Positions 6,039-58,107 of a stretch of 64,000 nucleotides of DNA are shown piece after piece. The stretch covers positions 10,108,001 to 10,172,000 of the forward strand of contig CM075993.1 of NCBI GenBank assembly GCA_038087875.1. The letters run 5' to 3'. Each line of letters begins with the position of its first letter. Position 1 is the stretch's first letter. The notes under the pieces were generated by a model. The model made no database searches and was not told the DNA's origin. It saw nothing but the letters and a program-made list of their open reading frames with translations. The DNA comes from Malacoraja senta. Taxonomy: Eukaryota. The position numbers and the translations under genes are program-made.

Positions 6039-6263
6039 GGTAGAGAAAATTGCTGGAGAAACTCAGCGGGTGCGGCAGCATCTATGGAGCGAAGGAAATA
6101 GGGACGTTTCGTGCGGCAGCATCTATGGAGCGAAGGAAATAGGCGACGTTTCGTCCCGAAACGTCTCCTATTTCCTTCGCTCCATAGATGCTGCCGCACC
6201 CGCTGAGTTTCTCCAGCAATTTTCTCTACCTTTGATACTCCAGCATCTGCAGTTCCTTCTTCA
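6039..6263. mobile_element. Penelope-derived fold-back, subfamily B
   Basis: Inverted arms; degenerate direct repeat caa.cttctttccct.ga on both flanks. Confidence 0.8.
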
Positions 6264-7529: not shown

Positions 7530-7965
7530 GTGTAGGAAGGAACTGCAGATGCTGGTTTACACCGAAGATACACAAAATGCTGGAGTAACTCAACGGGACA
7601 GGCAGCATCTCTGGAGATAAGGAATGGGTGACGTTTCTGGTCGAGACCCGTAAGGGGCTCGACCCGAAACGTCACCCATTCCTTCTCGCCAGAGACAGAG
7701 GCAGAAAACTGAGGCATAAAGCCTGTGTAACAATGTGATGTGATCATTCCTTCTCTCCAGAGGTGCTGCCTGTCCCGCTGAGTTACCCCAGCATTTTGTG
7801 TCTACCTTCAATTTAAACCGGCATCTGCAGTTCTTAACCTTTCTTCAGATTACCCAAAACGTCATCCATTCCTTCTCTCCAGAGATGCTGCCTGTCCCGC
7901 TGAGTTACCCCAGCATTTTGTGTCTATCTTCGGTGTAAACCAGCATCTGCAGTTCCTTCTAACAC
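7530..7965. mobile_element. Penelope-derived fold-back, subfamily A, with an extra arm and a templated insertion
   Basis: Inverted arms. Confidence 0.8.
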
Positions 7966-9180: not shown

Positions 9181-9683
9181 TTCCGAGATTTACTGCAAAG
9201 AAAATCAATGAGATTCCTTGCAGCTGATCAACTAGATCGACTGATCTAGCTTCCTTGTAGCTGACCAACTAGATCGACTAGATCGACTGATCTAGCTTCC
9301 TTGCAGCTGATCAACTAGATCGACTGATCTAGCTTCCTTGTGACTGACCAACTAGATCGACTAGATCGACTGATCTAGCTTCCTTGTAGCTGATCAACTA
9401 GATCGACTGTACACAAAAATGCTGGAGAAACTCAGCGGGTGCAGCAGCATCTATGGAGCGAAGGAAATAGGCAACGTTTCAGCCCGAAACCTGGCCTATT
9501 TCCTTCGCTCCATAGATGCTGCTGCACCCGCTGAGTTTCTCCAGCATTTTTGTGTACCTTCAATTTTCCAGCATCTGCAGTTCCTTCGTTAAAACTAGAT
9601 CGACTGATCTAGCTTCCTTGTAGCTGATCAAGCTGATCAACTAGAAGGAATCTCATTGATTTACTTTGCAGTAAATCTCGGAA
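9181..9683. repeat. 39-bp inverted repeats enclosing a 37-46-bp tandem array rich in GATC/CTAG/AGCT/TCGA
   Basis: 9181-9219 is the reverse complement of 9645-9683 (1 mismatch); unit gcagctgatcaactagatcgactgatctagcttcctt. Confidence 0.85.
9410..9592. mobile_element. Penelope-derived fold-back, subfamily B
   Basis: Inverted arms; aactagatcgactg at 9396-9409 and 9593-9606. Confidence 0.85.
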
Positions 9684-10902: not shown

Positions 10903-11610
10903 ATGGACACAAAATGCTGGAGTAACTCAGCAGGACAGGCAGCATCTCTGGAGATAAGGAATGGGTGACGTTTCGGGTTGAGACCCTTCTTCCGACCGAG
11001 AGTCAGATGAGAGGGACGCACAGAGATAAGGAAGGGCAAGGTGTGAAAACAAGACATCAAGGGAGATGCAGCTCAAGGAAAATGTAGAATAGATAATTGT
11101 TAGCGAGGAGACGGTGACAACGAGGCATACAAAGATGAAATGTAATCAGAGGGACAGTCAGACTGGTTGGAGAACTATGGAAGGGGAGGGATGGAGAGAG
11201 AGAAGGAAATCAAGAGTTACTTGAAGTTAGAGAAGTCAATGTTCATACCGCTGGGGTGTAAGCTGCCCAAGCGAAATATGAGGTGCTGTTCTTCCAATTT
11301 GCACTGGGCGACACTCTGACAATGGAGGAGGCCCAGGACAGAAAGGTCAGTGTGGGAATGGGTGGGGGGGGGGGTTAAAGTGCTCTGCCCCTCCCCCACC
11401 CGAGTCGTCCTGCCAGTTCCACTGTTTACATCCATACATCCCTTCGTTATCACATCTTCCACAGCCAACAATGGGCCATTGTGGGCTCCACCATCCCTTG
11501 GTCATTGGTGCCGGCTCGGATTCGTTCTCAACCTTTTCATGCCTCTAGTTTCCCTCTCCCCTGACTCTCAGTCTCAGTCATCTATTCCTTTGCTCCAGAG
11601 GGGCTGCCTG
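10903..11610 (-). mobile_element. Penelope-like element fragments in inverted arrangement
   Basis: Minus strand SHSHTDLSVLGLLHCQS..RLGSLHPSGMNIDFSNFK*; plus-strand 3' UTR follows at 11385-11610. Confidence 0.8.
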
Positions 11611-12311: not shown

Positions 12312-12876
12312 TTATCCAGAAATCCAGGTTCAACATGCTCTGGGGAGTTTACATCCTCATTAATTAAATAAACCGAGAATTTACAGCAAGTACCAGTGAT
12401 ATAGATGACAGGATTGGCATAAAATCCCATCAGGCTCACTCAACGCTTCAGGAATAGATCATTCTTCCTTATCCACTCTAGCTATCTGTGACTCCAGAGT
12501 GTTTACTAGTCATATATACTGAAACGGAACAATGACCGCCACTTGCTGCAGCATAACAGGCCTGTAAACACAGTCATCAATAGATAATAGATAAAACAAT
12601 AGAAATTAAATACATTTTTTTTTTAAATATTCGAGAAAAACTAAATAAAAGCTCAAATTCTTTGTACCAACACCAATGCCACTAACTTTGTTCGGACCTC
12701 TGAAGAAGGATCTCGACCCGAAACGTCACCTATTCGTTTTCTCCAGAGATGCTTCCTGACCGCACCCGAGGTCAGGATCGAACCCGGGTTACTGGTGCTG
12801 TGAGGCAGAGGCTCTACAAACTGTGCCACTGTGTTGAACATGTCATGCAATTCAAGGGTAATTAGGGGCAAGTCTA

Positions 12877-13410
12877 GTGACCTGTATCAGCGAGAACAGG
12901 TGCAGGCTCGGCGATTGTTTCGCTGAACACCTCCGCTCAGTCCGCCTGAACCTACCAGATCTCCCGGTTGCTCAACATTTTAACTCCCCCTCCCATTCCC
13001 ACACTGACCTTTCTGTCCTGGGTCTCCTCCATTGTCAGAGTGAGGCCCAGCGCAAATTAGAGGAACACCACCTCATATTTCACTTGGGCAACTTACACCC
13101 CAGCGGTATGAACGTAGACTTCTCTAACTTCAAGTAGCCCTTGCTTTCCCCCTCCCTCCTTCCCCTCCCCCAACCTAGTTCTCTGATGAGTCTTACTGTC
13201 TCTGACTACATTTTATCTCTGTACCGCCCACTCCCCTGACATCAGTCGGAAGAAGGGTCTCGACCTGAAGTCACCCATTCCTTCTCTCTAGAGATGCTGC
13301 CTGTCCTTCTCTCCAGAGATGCTGCCTGTCCTTCTCTCCAGAGATGCTGCCTGTCCTTCTCTCCAGAGATGCTGCCTGTCCCGCTGAGTTACTCCAGCCT
13401 TTTGTGTCTA
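12877..13410 (+). mobile_element. Penelope-like element 3' fragment (GIY-YIG C-terminus plus arm)
   Basis: RLGDCFAEHLRSV..PVAQHFNSPSHS..HPSGMNVDFSNFK*. Confidence 0.85.
13280..13379. repeat. 25-bp tandem x4 (CCTTCTCTCCAGAGATGCTGCCTGT) within a Penelope arm
   Basis: Four direct copies. Confidence 0.9.
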
Positions 13411-14992: not shown

Positions 14993-15144
14993 GTTTAAGA
15001 AGGAACTGCAGATGCTGGAAAATCGAAGGTAGACAAAAGTGCTGGAGAAACTCAGCGGGTGCAGCAGCATCTATGGAGCGAAGGTTTCCTTCGCTCCATA
15101 GATGCTGCTGCACCCGCTGAGTTTCTCCAGCACTTTTGTCTACC
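14993..15144. mobile_element. Penelope-derived fold-back, subfamily B
   Basis: Inverted arms; perfect 16-bp TSD tatgtagaatagatgt at 14977-14992 and 15145-15160. Confidence 0.88.
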
Positions 15145-25840: not shown

Positions 25841-27158
25841 CTGTACCTCCCCTGCTGTAATGTTATTACTTCAGTGAAATATTAATTAACTTCGCGACTA
25901 ACCCACAGTGATTTATAAATGTGGGTTTTATACAGCTGTGCCTGGCTGCAGCAGAATCTTGCCAAAAGTTGGCAAATGAATAACTGCAGTTGGTTATTTA
26001 TTTTAATTCCCAGCAAGTGCCTCTGGAAACACATTATAATAGCACATCTGTTCATCGTTGTCTAAAAGAACTCTTTCCAATAACGTCAAATTATACAAAC
26101 TAGTTCCACCTGTATGTGTCTCATCACATGTTTAAAGATGTCAGAATGCCATGGAGTATCTAAACAGGCCCTTTAGTCCACCGTATACATATTGACTGTC
26201 AAACAATCTCCATCTACATTCATGTAATTGAAAGGAACTGCAGATGCTGGTTTGCACCAAAGATAGACACAAAATGCTGGAGTAACTCAGCGGAACAGGC
26301 AGCATCTCTGGAGAGATGGAGATCTCTGGTGTGAAGAAGGTCCCCTACCCGATACGTCACCTATCCATGTTCTCCAGAGATGCTACACTGGAATAATCCT
26401 CCACATTTTCCGCCACCTCCAACGGGATCCCACCACTAGCCACATTTTCCCATCACCACCCCATTCCGCCTTCCACAGAGACAGTTCCCTCCGCAACTCC
26501 CTGGTTAACTCATCCCTTCCCACCCAAACCACCTCCTTCTCAGTTACCTTCCCCTGCAACCACAGAAGATGCAACACCTGTCGCTTTACCTCCTCCCTCG
26601 ACTCTGTCCAGGGACCCCGACAGTCCTTTCAGGTTAGGCAGAGGTTCACTTGCACCTCCAACCTCATCTACTGTATCCAATGATCAAAATGTGGACTCTT
26701 ATACATCGACAGACCAAACGCAGACTGGGCGATCGTTTCATTAAATACCTTCCCTCAGCCCGCATGAACCAACCTGATCTCCCGGTTGCTGGACACTTTA
26801 ATTCTCCTTCCCATTCCTACACAGACCTTTCTGTCCTCAGTCTCCTCCATTGTCAGAGTGAGGCTAAACGCAAATTGGAGGAACAGCATCTCATATTTTG
26901 CTTGGGCAGCTTACAGCCCAGTGGTATGAATATTGACTTCTCTCACTTCAGGTAGCCCCGGCATTCCCTCTCTCTCTCTCTCTCTATCCCTCCCCCACCC
27001 AAGTCGCACCAGCTTCTCATTTTCACCCTACAAACAGCTTACAATGGCCTGTTTCCTTTATCATCGTTACTTTTTTGCATATCTTTCATTCATTGTTCTT
27101 TATCTCTCCACATCACCGTCTATATCTCCCATTTCCCTTATCCCTAACCAGTCTGAAG

Positions 27159-31263: not shown

Positions 31264-31888
31264 AGAAAAGTGATGCACCAAATGGATTGGGATTATTACT
31301 CTTGCCTGTGGAACCATCCCTGGACTGAGGGACTTTCCATGTGACACCAGGAACAGTGGGTTCCTTGAAGCAGGGAAGTTCAAGGAGAAATCTAAAAAGG
31401 CGTTCAGAATAAGGAAAAATGTTGAGACAATAATTACAGGAAAACTCCAATAATCCTCTGGATAGACACAAAGTGCTGGAGTAACTCAGCGGGTCAGGCA
31501 GCATCTGTGGAGAACATGGACACAAAGTGCTGAAGTAACTCAGCGGGTTAGGCAGCATCTCTGGAGAAAACTTTGTAACTCTGTTGGCGCCCTTTGTAAT
31601 GCAGATTATTATATTGTTCAAGGAATTTTTTCCTCTAGCCACTAAGATTGAAGACAATGGGTAAGGAGATAAGCTCGTTACGTATGCAAACTCTCCACGA
31701 AACATTCATAGCCGTCCACAGATAAATCTTCAAAACACAGTCTCTTGATTAACTGTTTCTTTATCGTCGTAGTAACAACAGTGATATTCATCCAAACTTC
31801 TTCTTGTTTTAGTACATTTTAATCTGACTCATAGTCAAACTCGTGCATGGTAGAAAGCTGTGCCTTCCCCCCATGCTTCTTCAACTAA

Positions 31889-34062: not shown

Positions 34063-34177
34063 ACTAGTTGATAGTTACAAAAGCTGCAGTAACTCAGTGG
34101 GCCAGACAGCATCTCTGGAGAAAAGGAATGGGTGACGTTTCGGGTCGGGATCCTTCTTCAGACAGAGTCAGGGGAAA

Positions 34178-37100
34178 GGCCAAACATTTCACTCTTCATT
34201 TACCTCCAAATCTAGAGGTACTGCAATTATTATTCGTAAAGGAATTCCATTTAAATCAAAGAACACTATTTTAGATAAGGAAGGGAGATATCTTATAGTA
34301 GCAGGGGAGATCAATAATATGCCAATTACGCTGGTAAACATATATGCGCCCAACTTTGATAACCCTCAATTTTTTAATAAAATTCTGAATATAATTGCAG
34401 AATCTAATTATCAAAATGTTATAATCGGAGGAGATTTTAATTGTGTTTTAGATCCTTATTTAGATAAATCGATGCAAAAACAAAAAGGTCAGACGAAATC
34501 TAAAACCAGTGAACTCTTACACACATATATGGAAAACACAAATATAACAGATGTATGGAGGATTGCAAACCCGACGGGAAGGGATTACTCGTTTTATTCA
34601 ATGGTGCATAAAACATATTCACGGATAGACTATTTTCTTGTGGATACAAAATTAATTTCGCAATCTCTGAATCCTAAATATCATATTAATGCGATCTCAG
34701 ATCATTCTCCGTTAACTTTTGTTCTAAAACTAGAAGGAATGTCTATGAATAAACCGTTCTGGAGGTTTAACTCACAAATTTTAAAAGACCCTCAAGGGAG
34801 TATCTATCTAAAAAAACAGATGGATCTATTTTTTGAGTTAAATGATACACCAGAGATATCCCCCACGTTATTATGGGAATCCTTCAAAGCATTTATAAGA
34901 GGAGTCATTATTTCATTTCAAGCTTATCAAAATAAAAAGAATAAGAATGAACAAAGACACTTAGAAGATCAAATAAAACAGTTAGATATAGATAATGCTA
35001 AAGACCCAACTATGGATAAACATAATAAAATACTACTACTGAAATTTCAGTTAAATAAATTACTGTCAGAGAAAGTTATAACATTATTTCAAATCACAAA
35101 ACAAGAACACTTCGAATTCGGGGACAAACCCCACAAACTTCTAGCACGACAACTTAAAAAACGGGAAAAAGAGAATGCAATATTAAAGATTAAATCAGAT
35201 AGAGGGGAAGTATTAACACTACCCAAGGATATTAATAAAAGATTTGCTCAATTTTACCAGAATCTATACACATCTAAAACGTCAATAGACAATAATAAAA
35301 TCGCAGAATTTTTAGATAATTGTAATCTACCACAATTAGAACGCAGGGAACAAGAGGAACTGGGAGCACAAATTACTTCTAAGGAGATAGAAGACACAAT
35401 AAAAACACTAAAAAATGGAAAAACACCAGGACCAGACGGATTCAGTAATGAATTTTATAAATCTTTTTATGATATAGTTACTCCACGATTACAAAAAATG
35501 TATACATATGCTTATAAAGAGCAAAACCTACCTGAAACACTAGCGGAATCAACGATCATATTAATACTTAAAAAAGATAAAAATATAGAAGAACCAGGAT
35601 CATATAGAGCTATTGCTTTGTTAAATACGGATCAGAAAATAATAGCAAAAACATTAGCCAATAGATTAAGCAAGTATGTTAGTAGACTAATACATGAGGA
35701 TCAAACAGGATTTATACCTAAGAGACACTCATTTAATAATTTGAGACGTTTGCTTAACATAATGCATTCACATAAATCTGATGACCAAGAGTTAGCTATC
35801 ATCTCACTGGACGCAGAAAAAGCGTTTGATCAAGTAGAATGGGACTATATGATCAAAGTATTGCAAAAATTCCAATTGGGAGAAAACTTTATTGCATGGA
35901 TAAAACTACTATATAACAAACCTACGGCTAGAATACTAACTAATAATATATTATCTTCAAAATTCGAATTATCTAGGGGCAACAGACAAGGATGTTCACT
36001 ATCACCGCTGTTATTTGCTTTGGTAATTGAACCCCTTGCTGAAAAAATAAGAACACACTCGAATATTCACGGTTATAATACAAAATATTCAAACAACAAA
36101 CTATCCCTATATGCTGATGATGTACTACTGTACATCACAAAACCACAAATTAGTATACCAAATATATTAAACTTAATTGAGGACTTTGGATCCTTTTCAG
36201 GATATAGAATAAATTGGAACAAAAGTGAAATTATGTCGATTAAACCAAAAGACTCAACACATCTCAGGAAATTCCCTTTTAAAATAGCTATGGAAAAATT
36301 CAAATATTTAGGAATTGAGATTACTAGAAATTACCATGATATGTTTAAAGCTAATTATAATCCCCTACTTAAGAAATTAAATAATCTGATTAAATTTTGG
36401 AAAACACTTCCGATGTCCTTAATAGGTAGGATAAATGCTATAAAAATGATTTTCTTGCCACAAATCCTTTACCTATTTCAATCAATACCTATATATCTCC
36501 CAAAAAAGTTTTTCAAAAAACTGGACTCAGACATTACAAATTTTATATGGGATTACAAATCCCACAGAATACAAAGAACACACCTTAACAAACGAAAAGA
36601 GTTGGGGGGTCTAGCGCTCCCTAACTTTATGTATTATAACTGGGCAGTAAATATTAAAAATATGATTCACCTGCTGGACAATTCTGCCCAGCAGGTGGAC
36701 TGGATTATAATGGAAAAAGGGGATTGCTCCCCGAATAATATAGGAGCGATTATTCTCTCTCCAATAAATTTGAATAATAAAAATTATAATAAAAATCCAA
36801 TTATATATAGCACTATTAGAACATGGAAGCAAATAAAACAGAATCTAAAATTAAGAAACCTATCTCTCTTAATACCAATAGTCAATAACCCATCGTTTAA
36901 ACCTTCAATCATAGATAAAGCATTTATACAATGGGAAAGAATGGGAATTAAAACGCTCGAAGATCTGTATGAATTAGAAAAATTACTATCATTCCAACAA
37001 CTACAACTGAAATATAATTTGAAAAATAATCAATATTTTAAATATCTACAAATCTGTGACTATTTGAAAACACACACAAAAGATTATTATAATATGCCTT

Positions 37101-37780
37101 CCGACTTACTAGATGAAGCAATGAAGACAAAGGCGGAATCAGTTAATTTAATATCATACTTATATAATATCATCTTAAATATAGAAATACCCACAACAGA
37201 TGGAATTAGAAGAGATTGGGAACAAGATCTAGGTATAAAAATTTCAAAAGAGAGTTGGGATAATCATTTATTACAGGTGCATAAATGCTCGATCAACGTA
37301 CGACATACGCTTATCCAATTTAAAACATTACATAGATTATATTATTCAAAAACCAAACTAAATAAAATCTTTCCTAACGTCTCACCAATCTGTGATAAAT
37401 GTATATGTCAAGAAGCTACCATAGCACATTCTTTTGTTTTTTGTACAAAAATCCAAAAATTCTGGTTTGAAATATTTGATATTTTTTCAAAATTAATCAA
37501 AATAAAACTGGTACCAAAACCAGAATGGATTATTTTTGGAATATCGGAAGGTATTCCTGAATTAAACGTGTATCAGAAGAATTTACTCAATTATGGGCTA
37601 ATAATGGGAAAAAAGCTTATACTTAAATTCTGGAAAAATGCGCCCACACCAACAATAAAAATGTGGACATCAAATATGTTGGAAACATTACATCTGGAAG
37701 AGATGAGATTCCTCCTAGTAGGCAAAGTAGATCAATTTCAAAAGACGTGGTCTACGTTTTTGGACCTATTACAAGCATGA
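34178..37780 (+). CDS. L1 ORF2 (AP endonuclease lacking its N-terminus, reverse transcriptase, C-terminal Cys/His motif)
   Basis: Uninterrupted frame, open upstream of the 34319 ATG back to the insertion junction (GQTFHSSFTSKSRGTAII..). Motifs NIYAPN, GDFN, SRIDY, SDH, PGPDG, DAEKAFD, RQGCSLSP, YADD, CDKC..H...C. Confidence 0.95.
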   Translation, partial: GQTFHSSFTSKSRGTAIIIRKGIPFKSKNTILDKEGRYLIVAGEINNMPITLVNIYAPNFDNPQFFNKILNIIAESNYQNVIIGGDFNCVLDPYLDKSMQKQKGQTKSKTSELLHTYMENTNITDVWRIANPTGRDYSFYSMVHKTYSRIDYFLVDTKLISQSLNPKYHINAISDHSPLTFVLKLEGMSMNKPFWRFNSQILKDPQGSIYLKKQMDLFFELNDTPEISPTLLWESFKAFIRGVIISFQAYQNKKNKNEQRHLEDQIKQLDIDNAKDPTMDKHNKILLLKFQLNKLLSEKVITLFQITKQEHFEFGDKPHKLLARQLKKREKENAILKIKSDRGEVLTLPKDINKRFAQFYQNLYTSKTSIDNNKIAEFLDNCNLPQLERREQEELGAQITSKEIEDTIKTLKNGKTPGPDGFSNEFYKSFYDIVTPRLQKMYTYAYKEQNLPETLAESTIILILKKDKNIEEPGSYRAIALLNTDQKIIAKTLANRLSKYVSRLIHEDQTGFIPKRHSFNNLRRLLNIMHSHKSDDQELAIISLDAEKAFDQVEWDYMIKVLQKFQLGENFIAWIKLLYNKPTARILTNNILSSKFELSRGNRQGCSLSPLLFALVIEPLAEKIRTHSNIHGYNTKYSNNKLSLYADDVLLYITKPQISIPNILNLIEDFGSFSGYRINWNKSEIMSIKPKDSTHLRKFPFKIAMEKFKYLGIEITRNYHDMFKANYNPLLKKLNNLIKFWKTLPMSLIGRINAIKMIFLPQILYLFQSIPIYLPKKFFKKLDSDITNFIWDYKSHRIQRTHLNKRKELGGLALPNFMYYNWAVNIKNMIHLLDNSAQQVDWIIMEKGDCSPNNIGAIILSPINLNNKNYNKNPIIYSTIRTWKQIKQNLKLRNLSLLIPIVNNPSFKPSIIDKAFIQWERMGIKTLEDLYELEKLLSFQQLQLKYNLKNNQYFKYLQICDYLKTHTKDYYNMPSDLLDEAMKTKAESVNLISYLYNIILNIEIPTTDGIRRDWEQDLGIKISKESWDNHLLQVHKCSINVRHTLIQFKTLHRLYYSKTKLNKIFPNVSPICDKCICQEATIAHSFVFCTKIQKFWFEIFDIFSKLIKIKLVPKPEWIIFGISEGIPELNVYQKNLLNYGLIMGKKLILKFWKNAPTPTIKMWTSNMLETLHLEEMRFLLVGKVDQFQKTWSTFLDLLQA

Positions 37781-38174
37781 GGTGCAATAGTAATTTAGAA
37801 AAACAAATAAATAAATAAAAGGTATCTGGACCTGGTAATGGGAGGTAAAATAAAAACAGACTTGGTTGGTAGTTCCTTCTCTATGAAGTATGGTATAAGA
37901 ATTATAATAGAGCGATTGTTCCTTCTTTCTTTCTCTTTTTTTTTCTAGGGTCTATTTTCTAACTTTACTTCCTTCTCTAACTTCTTTTCTAAGGGGCTTT
38001 CTTTTCCCAACACTCTTTTGCACTTCACAACCTTTGTGCACTTTCTTCACTTTTCTTACTTCTTTCTTTTTCTTTCTTAAAGTTTAAAAAAGTGAAGCGG
38101 TACAAAAAATGTATTAATATATACGTGTTGTACATTACTGTAATCTACCGTACTTCTAAAAAATAAAAAAAAAA
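34180..38174 (+). mobile_element. L1-clade LINE, 5'-truncated, young
   Basis: Long ORF2, T-rich 3' UTR, AATAAA plus poly(A) at about 38158-38174. 29-bp TSD tccttcttcagacagagtcaggggaaagg at 34151-34179 and 38175-38203. Confidence 0.95.
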
Positions 38175-38472
38175 TCCTTCTTCAGACAGAGTCAGGGGAA
38201 AGGGAAACGAGAGATATAGATGGTGATATAGAGAGATATAGAATAAATGATGAAGGATATGTGAGAAAGGGAACGATGATAATGGAGACAATCCACTGTT
38301 AGCTGTGGACTAGGTGAAAACAAGTTACAGACAGTGAGACTCAACAAGTTGATAGTTGATAGTTATATGACTTGGTTTATTTGAGCAAGTGTGGGATCAA
38401 GGAGCCCCAATAAAACTGAACTTAAAGGGATTCAAGAATAAAATTCACTAATGGTTCAGTCATGGCCCGCAC

Positions 38473-39061
38473 AAAGGAAGTGTGGAAGAAAGAAGCGTGC
38501 AAGAAGGAAGCGTGCAAGGAAGCGTGCAAGGAAGCATGCAAGGAGGAAGCGTGCAAGACGGAAGTGTGCACGGCGGAAGCGTGCAAAGACGGAAGTGTAC
38601 AAGAAGGAAGTGTGCAAGGAAGCATGCAAGAAGGAAGCGTGCAAGAAGGACGCGTGCAAGAAGGAAGCGTGCAAGAAGGAAGCGTGCAAGACGGAAGTGT
38701 GCAAGAAGGGAGCGTGCAAGAAGGAATCGTGCAAGAAGGAAGCGTGCAAGACGGAAGTGTGCAAGAAGGACGCTGCAAGAAGGAAGCGTGCAAGAAGGAC
38801 GCGTGCAAGAAGGACGCGTGCAAGAAGGAAGCGTGCAAGACGGAAGCGTGCAAGAAGGAAGCATGCAAGACGGAAGTGTACAAGAAGGAAGTGTACAAGA
38901 AGGAAGTGTACAAGAAGGAAGTGTGCAAGAAGGAAGTGTGCAAGAAGGAAGCGTGCAAGACGGAAGCGTGCAAGAAGGAAGCGTGCAAGACGGAAGTGTG
39001 CAAGAAGGAAGCGTGCAAGAAGGAAGCATGCAAGACGGAAGTGTACAAGAAGGAAGCGTGC
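38473..39061. repeat. 15-bp minisatellite (AAGAAGGAAGCGTGC)n, about 39 units
   Basis: Direct tandem units with point variants and a few 12-bp units. Confidence 0.95.
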
Positions 39062-39390
39062 AAGGAGGAACTGCAGATGCTGGTTTAAACCGAAGATAGA
39101 CTGGAGTAACTCAGCGGGACGGGCAGCATCTCTGGAGAGAAGGAATAGATTACATTAGATGTCGACCCTTCATCGGATTGGGAGTCGGGGGAGGGGAAAC
39201 TAGAGGGATGGGAAGGTCCAGAACAAAGCAGTGATCGGTGCCAGCTCTGATCTGTTCTGTACCGTTCCATACCTCTAGTTTCCCTTTCCCCTGAACTTCA
39301 GTCCGATGAAGGGCTCGACCCCAAACGTCACCTATTCCTTTTCTCCAGAGATGCTGCCTGAGCCGCTGAGTTACTCCAGTTTTTTTCCTG
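39062..39390. mobile_element. Penelope-derived fold-back abutting the 15-bp satellite
   Basis: Inverted arms. Confidence 0.8.
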
Positions 39391-39595
39391 CACAAAGTAA
39401 GATACTTGTAACTGCTGGTGGTCGATATGTTCGGCTACAGGTCCACAGAGTATATGTGAGGTGCAACTAAAAACTTGGATTGTTTTTTCTGGACCGGAGG
39501 CCAAGTGGAAACCTGAAAGAAGTTTATAAAATTATGGGAGGCGTAGATGTAGTAGACAGTCAGAGCCTTATTCCCCAGGGCGAAAATGTCAAATA

Positions 39596-39880: not shown

Positions 39881-39934
39881 CTACTGGTGATCAATATATT
39901 CAGTTATGCCGACTTTGTTCAGAGTTTATGTAAC

Positions 39935-40415
39935 TAATAAACTTTGATTGTTTTATCCTGGACTGGAGGCCAAGGGGAAAACCTGAAAGAGCTTTATAAA
40001 ATTATGGGAGGCATAGATAGGGTAGATATTCAGAGCATTTCCCATGGTGAAAAATGTCAAATACTAGTAGGGCATAGATTTGATGTGGGAGGACGAGGTG
40101 GTTTGTGAAGGAAGATTCTATTCGGGAAACACACGGAGGGATAGATGCCTGTAACACACAGAGGGATAGGTGCCTGTAACACACAGAGGGATAGTTGCCT
40201 GTAACACACAGAGGGATAGGTGCCTGTAACACACAGAGGGATAGATGCCTGTAACACACAGCCAGATGGTAGAAGCTGATTTAATAGCAATGTTTAAGAG
40301 GCATTTAGACAGGTCATTAGCAGGCAGGGGACAGAGGGATACGTATCATGTACAGGCAGATGGGATTATTTAGGCTGTCAGTGCAGACACTGCAGTACTA
40401 AGGCCTGTTCCTATC
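39935..40415 (+). mobile_element. Old CR1 fragment containing a 25-bp minisatellite
   Basis: Diverged CR1 3' sequence. Confidence 0.65.
40129..40260. repeat. 25-bp tandem x5 (ACACACAGAGGGATAG.TGCCTGTA), CR1-derived
   Basis: Five direct copies. Confidence 0.9.
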
Positions 40416-41749: not shown

Positions 41750-42258
41750 TTCAAGAAGGAACTGCAGATGCTGGAAAATCGAAGGTAGTCAAAAATGCTG
41801 GAGAAACTCGGCGGGTGCAGCAGCATCTATGGAGCGAAGGAAATAGGCAACGTTTCGGCCCGAAACCCTTCCGGGTTTCGTCCCAAAACGTTGCCTATTT
41901 CCTTCAGGGTTTTCGGCCCGAAACGTTGCCTATTTCCTTCAGTGTTTTCGGCCCGAAACGTTGCCTATTTCCTTCAGGGTTTTCGGCCCGAAACGTTGCC
42001 TATTTCCTTCAGGGTTTTCGGCCCGAAACGTTGCCTATTTCCTTCAGTGTTTTCGGCCCGAAACGTTGCCTATTTCCTTCAGGGTTTTCGGCCCGAAACG
42101 TTGCCTATTTCATTCAGTGTTTTCGGCCCGAAACGTTGCCTATTTCCTTCAGGGTTTTCGGCCCGAAACGTTGCCTATTTCCTTCAGGGTTTTCGGCCCG
42201 AAACGTTGCCTATTTCCTTCGCTCCATAGATGCTGCCGCACCCGCTGAGTTTCCCCCA
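41750..42258. mobile_element. Penelope-derived fold-back, subfamily B, containing a 35-bp array
   Basis: Inverted arms flank the array. Confidence 0.85.
41873..42220. repeat. 35-bp tandem array x10 (G[G/T]GTTTTCGGCCCGAAACGTTGCCTATTTCCTTCA)
   Basis: Head-to-tail units without spacers. Confidence 0.95.
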
Positions 42259-57529: not shown

Positions 57530-58107
57530 CATTCCTTCTCCCAGTTTGTCGGAGCCCCGCGTGATGTCGGGACCAGCTCCGCACAACTCCATACGGCTCC
57601 GGCGATCGAAGTGGGACCGGCCCCGCGAGGCCGTACGGCTCAAGCGACCACGTTAGGTCGCTGCCTATTACTCCAGCATTTTTGCAGCAGATCTTGCTGC
57701 CTGAGTTACTCCAGCATTTTGTATCTATCTCCGGTTTAAGCCAGCATCTGCAGTTCCTTCTTACACAGAGTGAAAATAAAATTCTGCATGTCATTTATAA
57801 AATTCCAAAATGTTATTGATATATTGTTGAGGATAAACAAGATTTGAGGAATGCATTTAGTGCAAAAACGGCAATGTATGTGCACACTTAGCTGCTGTAA
57901 ATGTTAATTTACAATTTGAGAAGGTAAATCCTTTTTGCAAGGGAACTCCTGCCAACTCTCCTTATCAATGCTGAATCAAAAATACTGCTGTTTCTTCTTC
58001 GTACAACAATTTAAAGTGCAGTCTCTTACGCTGCTTTACATTCCTGCAGTCCTCGTTCCACTTTCAATATTTTGTCAATATATTCTGTCCTGGAATGCAA
58101 CAACTAT

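Follow-up and report, generated by a model that had tools for sequence, protein, structure and literature searches.

The locus described here lies in a 64-kb window (the whole stretch of DNA that was analysed) and consists of a tandem array, an adjoining piece of what appears to be a Penelope-like element (PLE), and a target-site duplication (TSD) around both. These features and two others from the same window are as follows.

38466..38480, + strand: left TSD copy, 15 bp, CCCGCACAAAGGAAG, in register with the array and 11/15 identical to its unit
38481..39056, + strand: minisatellite of 39 units, majority unit CGTGCAAGAAGGAAG, with recurrent linked variants; unit 1 is the most diverged
39057..39071, + strand: last 15 nt of the PLE tail (cDNA sense), forming the final array unit and keeping the element's C at position 15
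39057..39232, - strand: long (tailed) pLTR arm of the PLE relic, whose RNA sense is the minus strand
39246..39386, + strand: short pLTR arm, inverted relative to the long arm, with a decayed hammerhead-type core near 39303-39332
39387..39401, + strand: right TSD copy, CCTGCACAAAGTAAG, outside the array and 11/15 identical to its unit
26360..27153, + strand: reference relic with a broken GIY-YIG endonuclease end, a C-X4-C-X2-C finger and then a pLTR, tying the repeat group to PLEs
41867..42220, + strand: internal control, a 10 x 35-bp array occupying another PLE relic's inversion junction, with CCTTC on both sides

TRF reported a period of 15 with 40.4 copies over 38474-39070 (score 807), and parsing of the array gave 39 units plus a terminal unit over 38481-39071, the 40 unit lengths being 15 bp (35 units), 12 bp (three), 14 bp (one) and 16 bp (one). 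The terminal unit, GTGCAAGGAGGAA-CTGC, is the element's own end and follows the array in register with zero spacer, which confirmed the original prediction that about 39 units run spacerless into the terminus of a Penelope arm; the termini that it quoted at 7530, 50238 and 57750-57766 also read as written. The 13-mer GTGCAAGAAGGAA was matched with at most two mismatches 49 times in the window compared with 2.6 expected, 35 of the 49 matches lying inside the array and the remainder mostly at element termini. BLAST of the array against the 64-kb window gave no match beyond the array itself, and no locus in the window carries the array without the element. Within the window the array is a single-locus minisatellite rather than the satellite that it had been called. 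Summed sequencing depth was at most 258 over the first units (X23), 29-55 over unique flank and more than 2 million over the neighbouring pLTR, which argues against a dispersed satellite, with the caveat that depth is no copy number. Scanning viral contigs with the array pattern returned 0 loci, and scanning viral and metagenome contigs with terminus patterns returned 11, all of them chance matches with element sequence absent past the pattern. We propose no function for the array, which is likely neutral.

An ATG frame with Cys/Lys/Glu repeats runs across the array on the plus strand (38462-39088). Read as a gene, it would start at ATG 38462 and encode 208 codons, MARTK followed by CKKEA repeats, and it does stay open from the ATG to the stop at 39088, where +1 and -1 shifts compensate each other. 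Such openness comes free, however, because the unit is stop-free in every frame; the recurrent changes are mostly non-synonymous in this frame, and a search at E 0.001 through 176 candidates of similar length found no homologue. We give a coding repeat next to no credence.

The element piece at 39057-39386 (roughly 330 bp, without an ORF) is an inverted pair of arms with an extra tail on only one of them. The two arms differ by 23 mismatches in 132 columns (8% per arm), and the long arm is 5.9% from the family majority. By its sequence the piece is a Penelope-like relic, as had been claimed, the identity coming via its repeat group (link to the GIY-YIG relic, layout and hammerhead cores). In a tblastn search, 26360-26952 appeared as the broken end of an endonuclease, where a C-X4-C-X2-C finger precedes a GIY-YIG-type motif, and Neptune and Nematis PLEs are described as having such a finger (PMC8557442; this and the other papers cited are drawn on in excerpt). 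Homologues of the protein encoded there matched Pfam GIY-YIG weakly, below the cut-off, in 5 of 7 cases, Pfam gave no match on either of two endonuclease fragments of the window, and the best named protein matches of one window fragment came from Leucoraja, Rhinoraja and Amblyraja, by which the window looks like skate DNA. The pLTR of the 26360 region links to 39057-39386 at 80-84% (BLAST) via a copy at 1996-2600; the GIY-YIG endonuclease end is seen for the repeat group and not in the 39057-39386 copy itself. Three broken Neptune-type PLE endonuclease ends lie in the window (26234-27153, preceded by an inverted tailed arm, 12838-13134 and 11220-11366), and no PLE reverse transcriptase was recognised there. 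A LINE ORF2, uninterrupted for 1214 codons, occupies 34136-37780 (+), encodes APE endonuclease, RT and zf-RVT domains and is followed by an A-rich tail near 38160-38176; this LINE appears young and is possibly competent.

The layout of inverted arms, a tail on one arm and a TSD agrees with that known for PLEs, namely inverted pLTRs, an optional tail and a TSD (PMC3846280). Minimal hammerhead core motifs, of a type known in PLEs (PMC4209133), numbered 8 in the window and 0-1 in 20 shuffles, pointing to a minimal hammerhead core in the pLTR as a putative ribozyme; Rfam found no hammerhead, only sub-threshold hairpin-type matches. In all, 27 tailed ends were found in the window including this one; agreement with the terminal 14-mer reaches at least 11 positions in 18 of the 26 others. 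The majority terminus of these other copies is TGTGT-A-A/G-GAAGGAAC (positions 1-15). On the RNA strand, the tail of 39057-39232 ends in ACACA. In the anole element PAc, reverse transcription starts at two AC-rich RNA sites with the tail between them (PMC11167929); because the ACACA end resembles such a start, the junction of array and element would be the place where reverse transcription begins, in agreement with the original prediction.

The two TSD copies are 13/15 identical, the best match within 3.6 kb upstream, and only 37 of 20,000 random window pairs were equally good. They lie flush with the array start and with the end of the short arm and enclose both array and element. Direct repeats of 12-21 bp were seen at equivalent places in 11 of 18 other copies examined (a count without a separate null), 15 bp being the usual TSD size of the family. 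Among these 11 TSD-bearing copies (e.g. at 15002, 47440, 55603 and 57757), eight have a TSD ending in a TG or TGT that overlaps the TGTG end of the element, which suggests priming by 2-3 nt of microhomology on the ACACA start. The right copy contains AA-GTAAGA, which we take to be a good match to the splice donor motif. A local duplicate of about 110 bp with 85% identity is found at 39462-39569 and 39929-40039.

The position of the array within the TSD bears on whether it was there before the element, since an array so placed is not a simple pre-existing target; of all the observations, this one favours the original prediction most. A more elaborate version can be framed, in which the element landed at the end of a short array of TSD-like units already in place, whose interior was homogenised afterwards to the present unit. 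Both TSD copies do resemble decayed units (11/15), and microsatellite target bias has been described in PLE clades (PMC8557442). However, no relic unit was found beyond either TSD copy (flanking 15-mers matched at 2-6/15, the best within 150 bp at 8/15), and 15 bp is simply the normal TSD size in this family; we consider this version very improbable.

In register, the majority unit CGTGCAAGAAGGAAG agrees at 12/15 positions with the majority terminus TGTGTAAGAAGGAAC, which was derived from the 26 other copies in the window, so that the claim of a unit matching the element's last ~13-15 nt stands for the terminal bases, which are present, and fails for the unit as a whole. The differences fall at positions 1, 5 and 15, and at all three the unit has the base of both TSD copies, so TSD and terminus between them account for all 15 unit positions; where the unit differs from the TSD, at positions 2, 7 and 8, it has the terminus base. 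Position 15 is G in 38 of the 39 units, and C in the last unit and in 26/26 other termini. The right TSD copy, 315 bp past the array, matches the unit at 11/15 (background, 18 of 123,984 15-mers). TSD and 15-nt majority terminus match each other in register at 8/15 (2% background), sharing AAG(G/T)AA exactly 15 bp apart, and the TSD matches AAGGAAG at 6/7, as do 0.3% of the window's 7-mers. On these comparisons the array unit is a chimera of target-site and element-end bases, and the short direct repeat of TSD and tail, one period apart, would be a classic minisatellite seed. The G at position 12 of the left TSD copy (T in the right copy) may have been converted by the array, in which case the seed was weaker. 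Since a C at position 5 is also present in 3/26 termini and the C at position 1 can be reached by one transition, position 15 and the 11/15 match carry most of the mosaic argument. At position 15 the predictions diverge: duplication between AAG(G/T)AA of the TSD and AAGGAA of the tail yields a period of 15 with G in all units but the last, whereas RNA-templated addition predicts C.

The history of the units can be read from their variants. Of 26 non-CpG substitutions, 19 are accounted for by three variants found in 10, 5 and 4 units, and independent placement simulated in 100,000 trials reached a maximum of 7. Two linkages of these variants to neighbouring changes were detected (Fisher p 0.004 and 0.001), a run of three identical variant units occupies 38878-38922, and shared variants are interspersed, as DNA-level turnover would lead one to expect. 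The array has 5 private non-CpG changes in 575 bp; those expected for the age of the insertion are ~46 by arm divergence, a clock which assumes that one RNA templated both arms, or ~30 by distance to the family majority. Because variants recur in linked form and private changes are few, the units have probably been copied from one another as DNA. The A-to-C variants were found in 0/26 other termini, and for this reason switching between different RNAs fails to explain them. As a counterpoint, the raw difference from the array consensus (42/575, 7.3%) equals the age of the element if recurrence is ignored. Lag analysis showed no regular higher-order period in the array. These turnover tests date the present units and are silent on the first duplicate.

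That first duplicate is where the original prediction placed the reverse transcriptase, by repeat addition on RNA, and PLE and telomerase RTs are described as having the same most recent common ancestor (PMC8557442). On that account the PLE RT copied the tail, realigned via TG...TG (A-B-A', 15 nt apart) and repeated the cycle, DNA turnover erasing the original copies. The array does lie inside the TSD at the RT start, which is AC-rich as in PAc, and the tail contains TG twice, 15 nt apart, although this is only a 2-nt repeat, in a template seen as far as the start site; a 2-nt A/A' is enough in some DRT10 systems (PMC12632851), and the eel LINE UnaL2 is reported to undergo telomerase-like template slippage when RT initiates (PMC1636434). 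Folding of 5 tails predicted an 8-9 bp stem in 4 of them, 3 nt past the second TG, but the folds are no better than those of shuffles (z -1.0 to -1.9). Against this account, the unit carries target-site bases: C is needed at position 15, and thus a C-to-G sweep through all units but the last, together with a chance in-register TSD match (6/7 to AAGGAAG). RNA copying predicts independent changes in each unit, but the variants recur, are linked and are absent from the 26 termini. None of the other tailed ends is reiterated (0/26, best 9/13), and the 15-mers upstream of these ends match their own ends at no more than 7/15. Repeat ladders are also absent from the main text of the PAc in vitro paper (PMC11167929). 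We therefore regard this account as quite improbable, and the later slippage or unequal exchange that the original prediction gave as the alternative as the better fit. Equally improbable in our view is the broader conjecture that the skate PLE RT can reiterate its own 15-nt tail by realigning via TG...TG under a stem boundary, with this locus as a fossil overwritten by DNA turnover; if it were true, short reiterations of pure units would be expected at young insertions elsewhere.

Other arrays in the window show where tandem duplication occurs. The 10 x 35-bp array at 41867-42220 belongs to a second-family PLE relic, has an interspersed G/T variant and overlaps part of a hammerhead core. An array of 4 x 25 bp, bounded by TCC, lies inside a PLE arm, and duplications of 25 bp and 54 bp are found inside arms off junctions. 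Further short tandem arrays occur at 13279-13381, 31465-31568, 6070-6154, 40128-40261 and 9214-9409, three of them inside PLE arms, and a PLE relic lies within a tandem repeat at 9214-9600. These arrays matter for a reading in which the first duplicate was a hybrid made during integration, when RT or a repair polymerase switched among nascent cDNA, single-stranded TSD overhang and RNA, with slippage only afterwards. It accounts for the chimeric unit and the location inside the TSD, the 41867-42220 array is likewise at a junction formed during integration, and PAc nicks and extends both strands (PMC11167929). It needs two switches, however, compared with one for later slippage, and the 25-bp and 54-bp duplications arose away from junctions too; we judge it unlikely. 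For the reverse transcriptase as maker of the first duplicate there is a small residual chance.

The junction was also compared in other sequencing samples, the comparison covering 4 of 24 listed runs over 38176-38550 only, the array's first 70 bp included. In the run search, 2/24 runs contained 41-56% of words and 22/24 contained 5-10%. Contigs from two samples of organism H, either of which may be where the assembly came from, are identical across the TSD and the opening units of the array. In organism A, one low-depth contig (113 bp, depth 3.6, 2 substitutions, 5 gap letters) spans flank, TSD and the opening units, which likely places the junction before the A/H split. At organism A's junction, a contig of depth ~100 has an insertion that produces the unit variant also present in window units 5 and 40; this hints at different homogenisation, with depth again being no copy number. 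Neither an empty site nor an array-free allele was seen among the samples compared over 38176-38550; the cover of organism B falls to zero at 38449-38461 with no bridging contig listed, which is uninformative on the empty site.

Taken together, we consider it probable that this is a minisatellite with a chimeric unit, born inside a PLE TSD by DNA slippage or unequal exchange between TSD and tail after integration. A non-autonomous PLE piece with inverted arms lies between two 15-bp TSD copies. Because TSD and tail match at 8/15 in register, including AAG(G/T)AA, the fresh junction was a poor two-unit tandem. Misalignment over this microhomology would then have duplicated one period, G plus TGTG..AAGGAA, and DNA-level duplication and conversion would have raised the array to 40 units, with turnover continuing. 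Only this copy became arrayed, on this account, because its TSD resembles the tail. The evidence comes from one window with 26 other termini, and the first duplication is itself inferred.

Minisatellite birth between direct repeats of 5-10 bp is known (Haber and Louis 1998, via PMC6947457 and PMC3389668), as are Alu-derived minisatellites (Jurka and Gentles 2006, via the same papers). As in the excerpted accounts of direct-repeat minisatellites, a short direct repeat bounds the unit, growth is by slippage, conversion or unequal exchange, and the terminal unit differs; here, however, the short repeats come from two molecules, host TSD and element tail, that were joined by the insertion, the unit is a host-element chimera and the element is a PLE. 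With EN+ Neptune-type PLEs (PMC8557442, PMC3846280, PMC4209133, PMC11167929) the copy shares inverted pLTR arms, a one-arm tail, a TSD and a hammerhead core, as well as the GIY-YIG and C-X4-C-X2-C finger of the linked relic and the AC-rich RT start, whereas TSDs in this window are ~15 bp compared with 8-10 bp in rotifer examples, and tail arrays are not described in the excerpts of these four papers. Its likeness to telomerase and DRT10 (PMC12632851) and to UnaL2 (PMC1636434) lies in tandem units at the RT start, a 2-nt TG...TG pattern and, as a prediction, a stem upstream of the tail; RNA, however, does not code for the whole unit, variants are inherited from unit to unit and only 1/27 termini is affected. 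Retrozymes, with tandem whole pLTR units (10.64898/2026.07.22.740005, excerpt), differ from the array at 38481-39071. In titles and abstract openings of the literature, with few subscription papers, we found no array at a PLE tail and no TSD-tail chimeric unit. The array adds a clear new example of a process already known, minisatellite birth.

The locus does not support the idea that PLE reverse transcriptases add repeats, something that would have had weight for the origins of telomerase. What it offers instead is a minisatellite birth that is unusually readable, since the target site and the element end from which the unit derives both persist beside the array, and in which the insertion itself would have created the seed. 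The account predicts arrays wherever a TSD happens to resemble the tail, and this can be tested on any skate assembly, the repeat group being dense (27 tailed ends per 64 kb).
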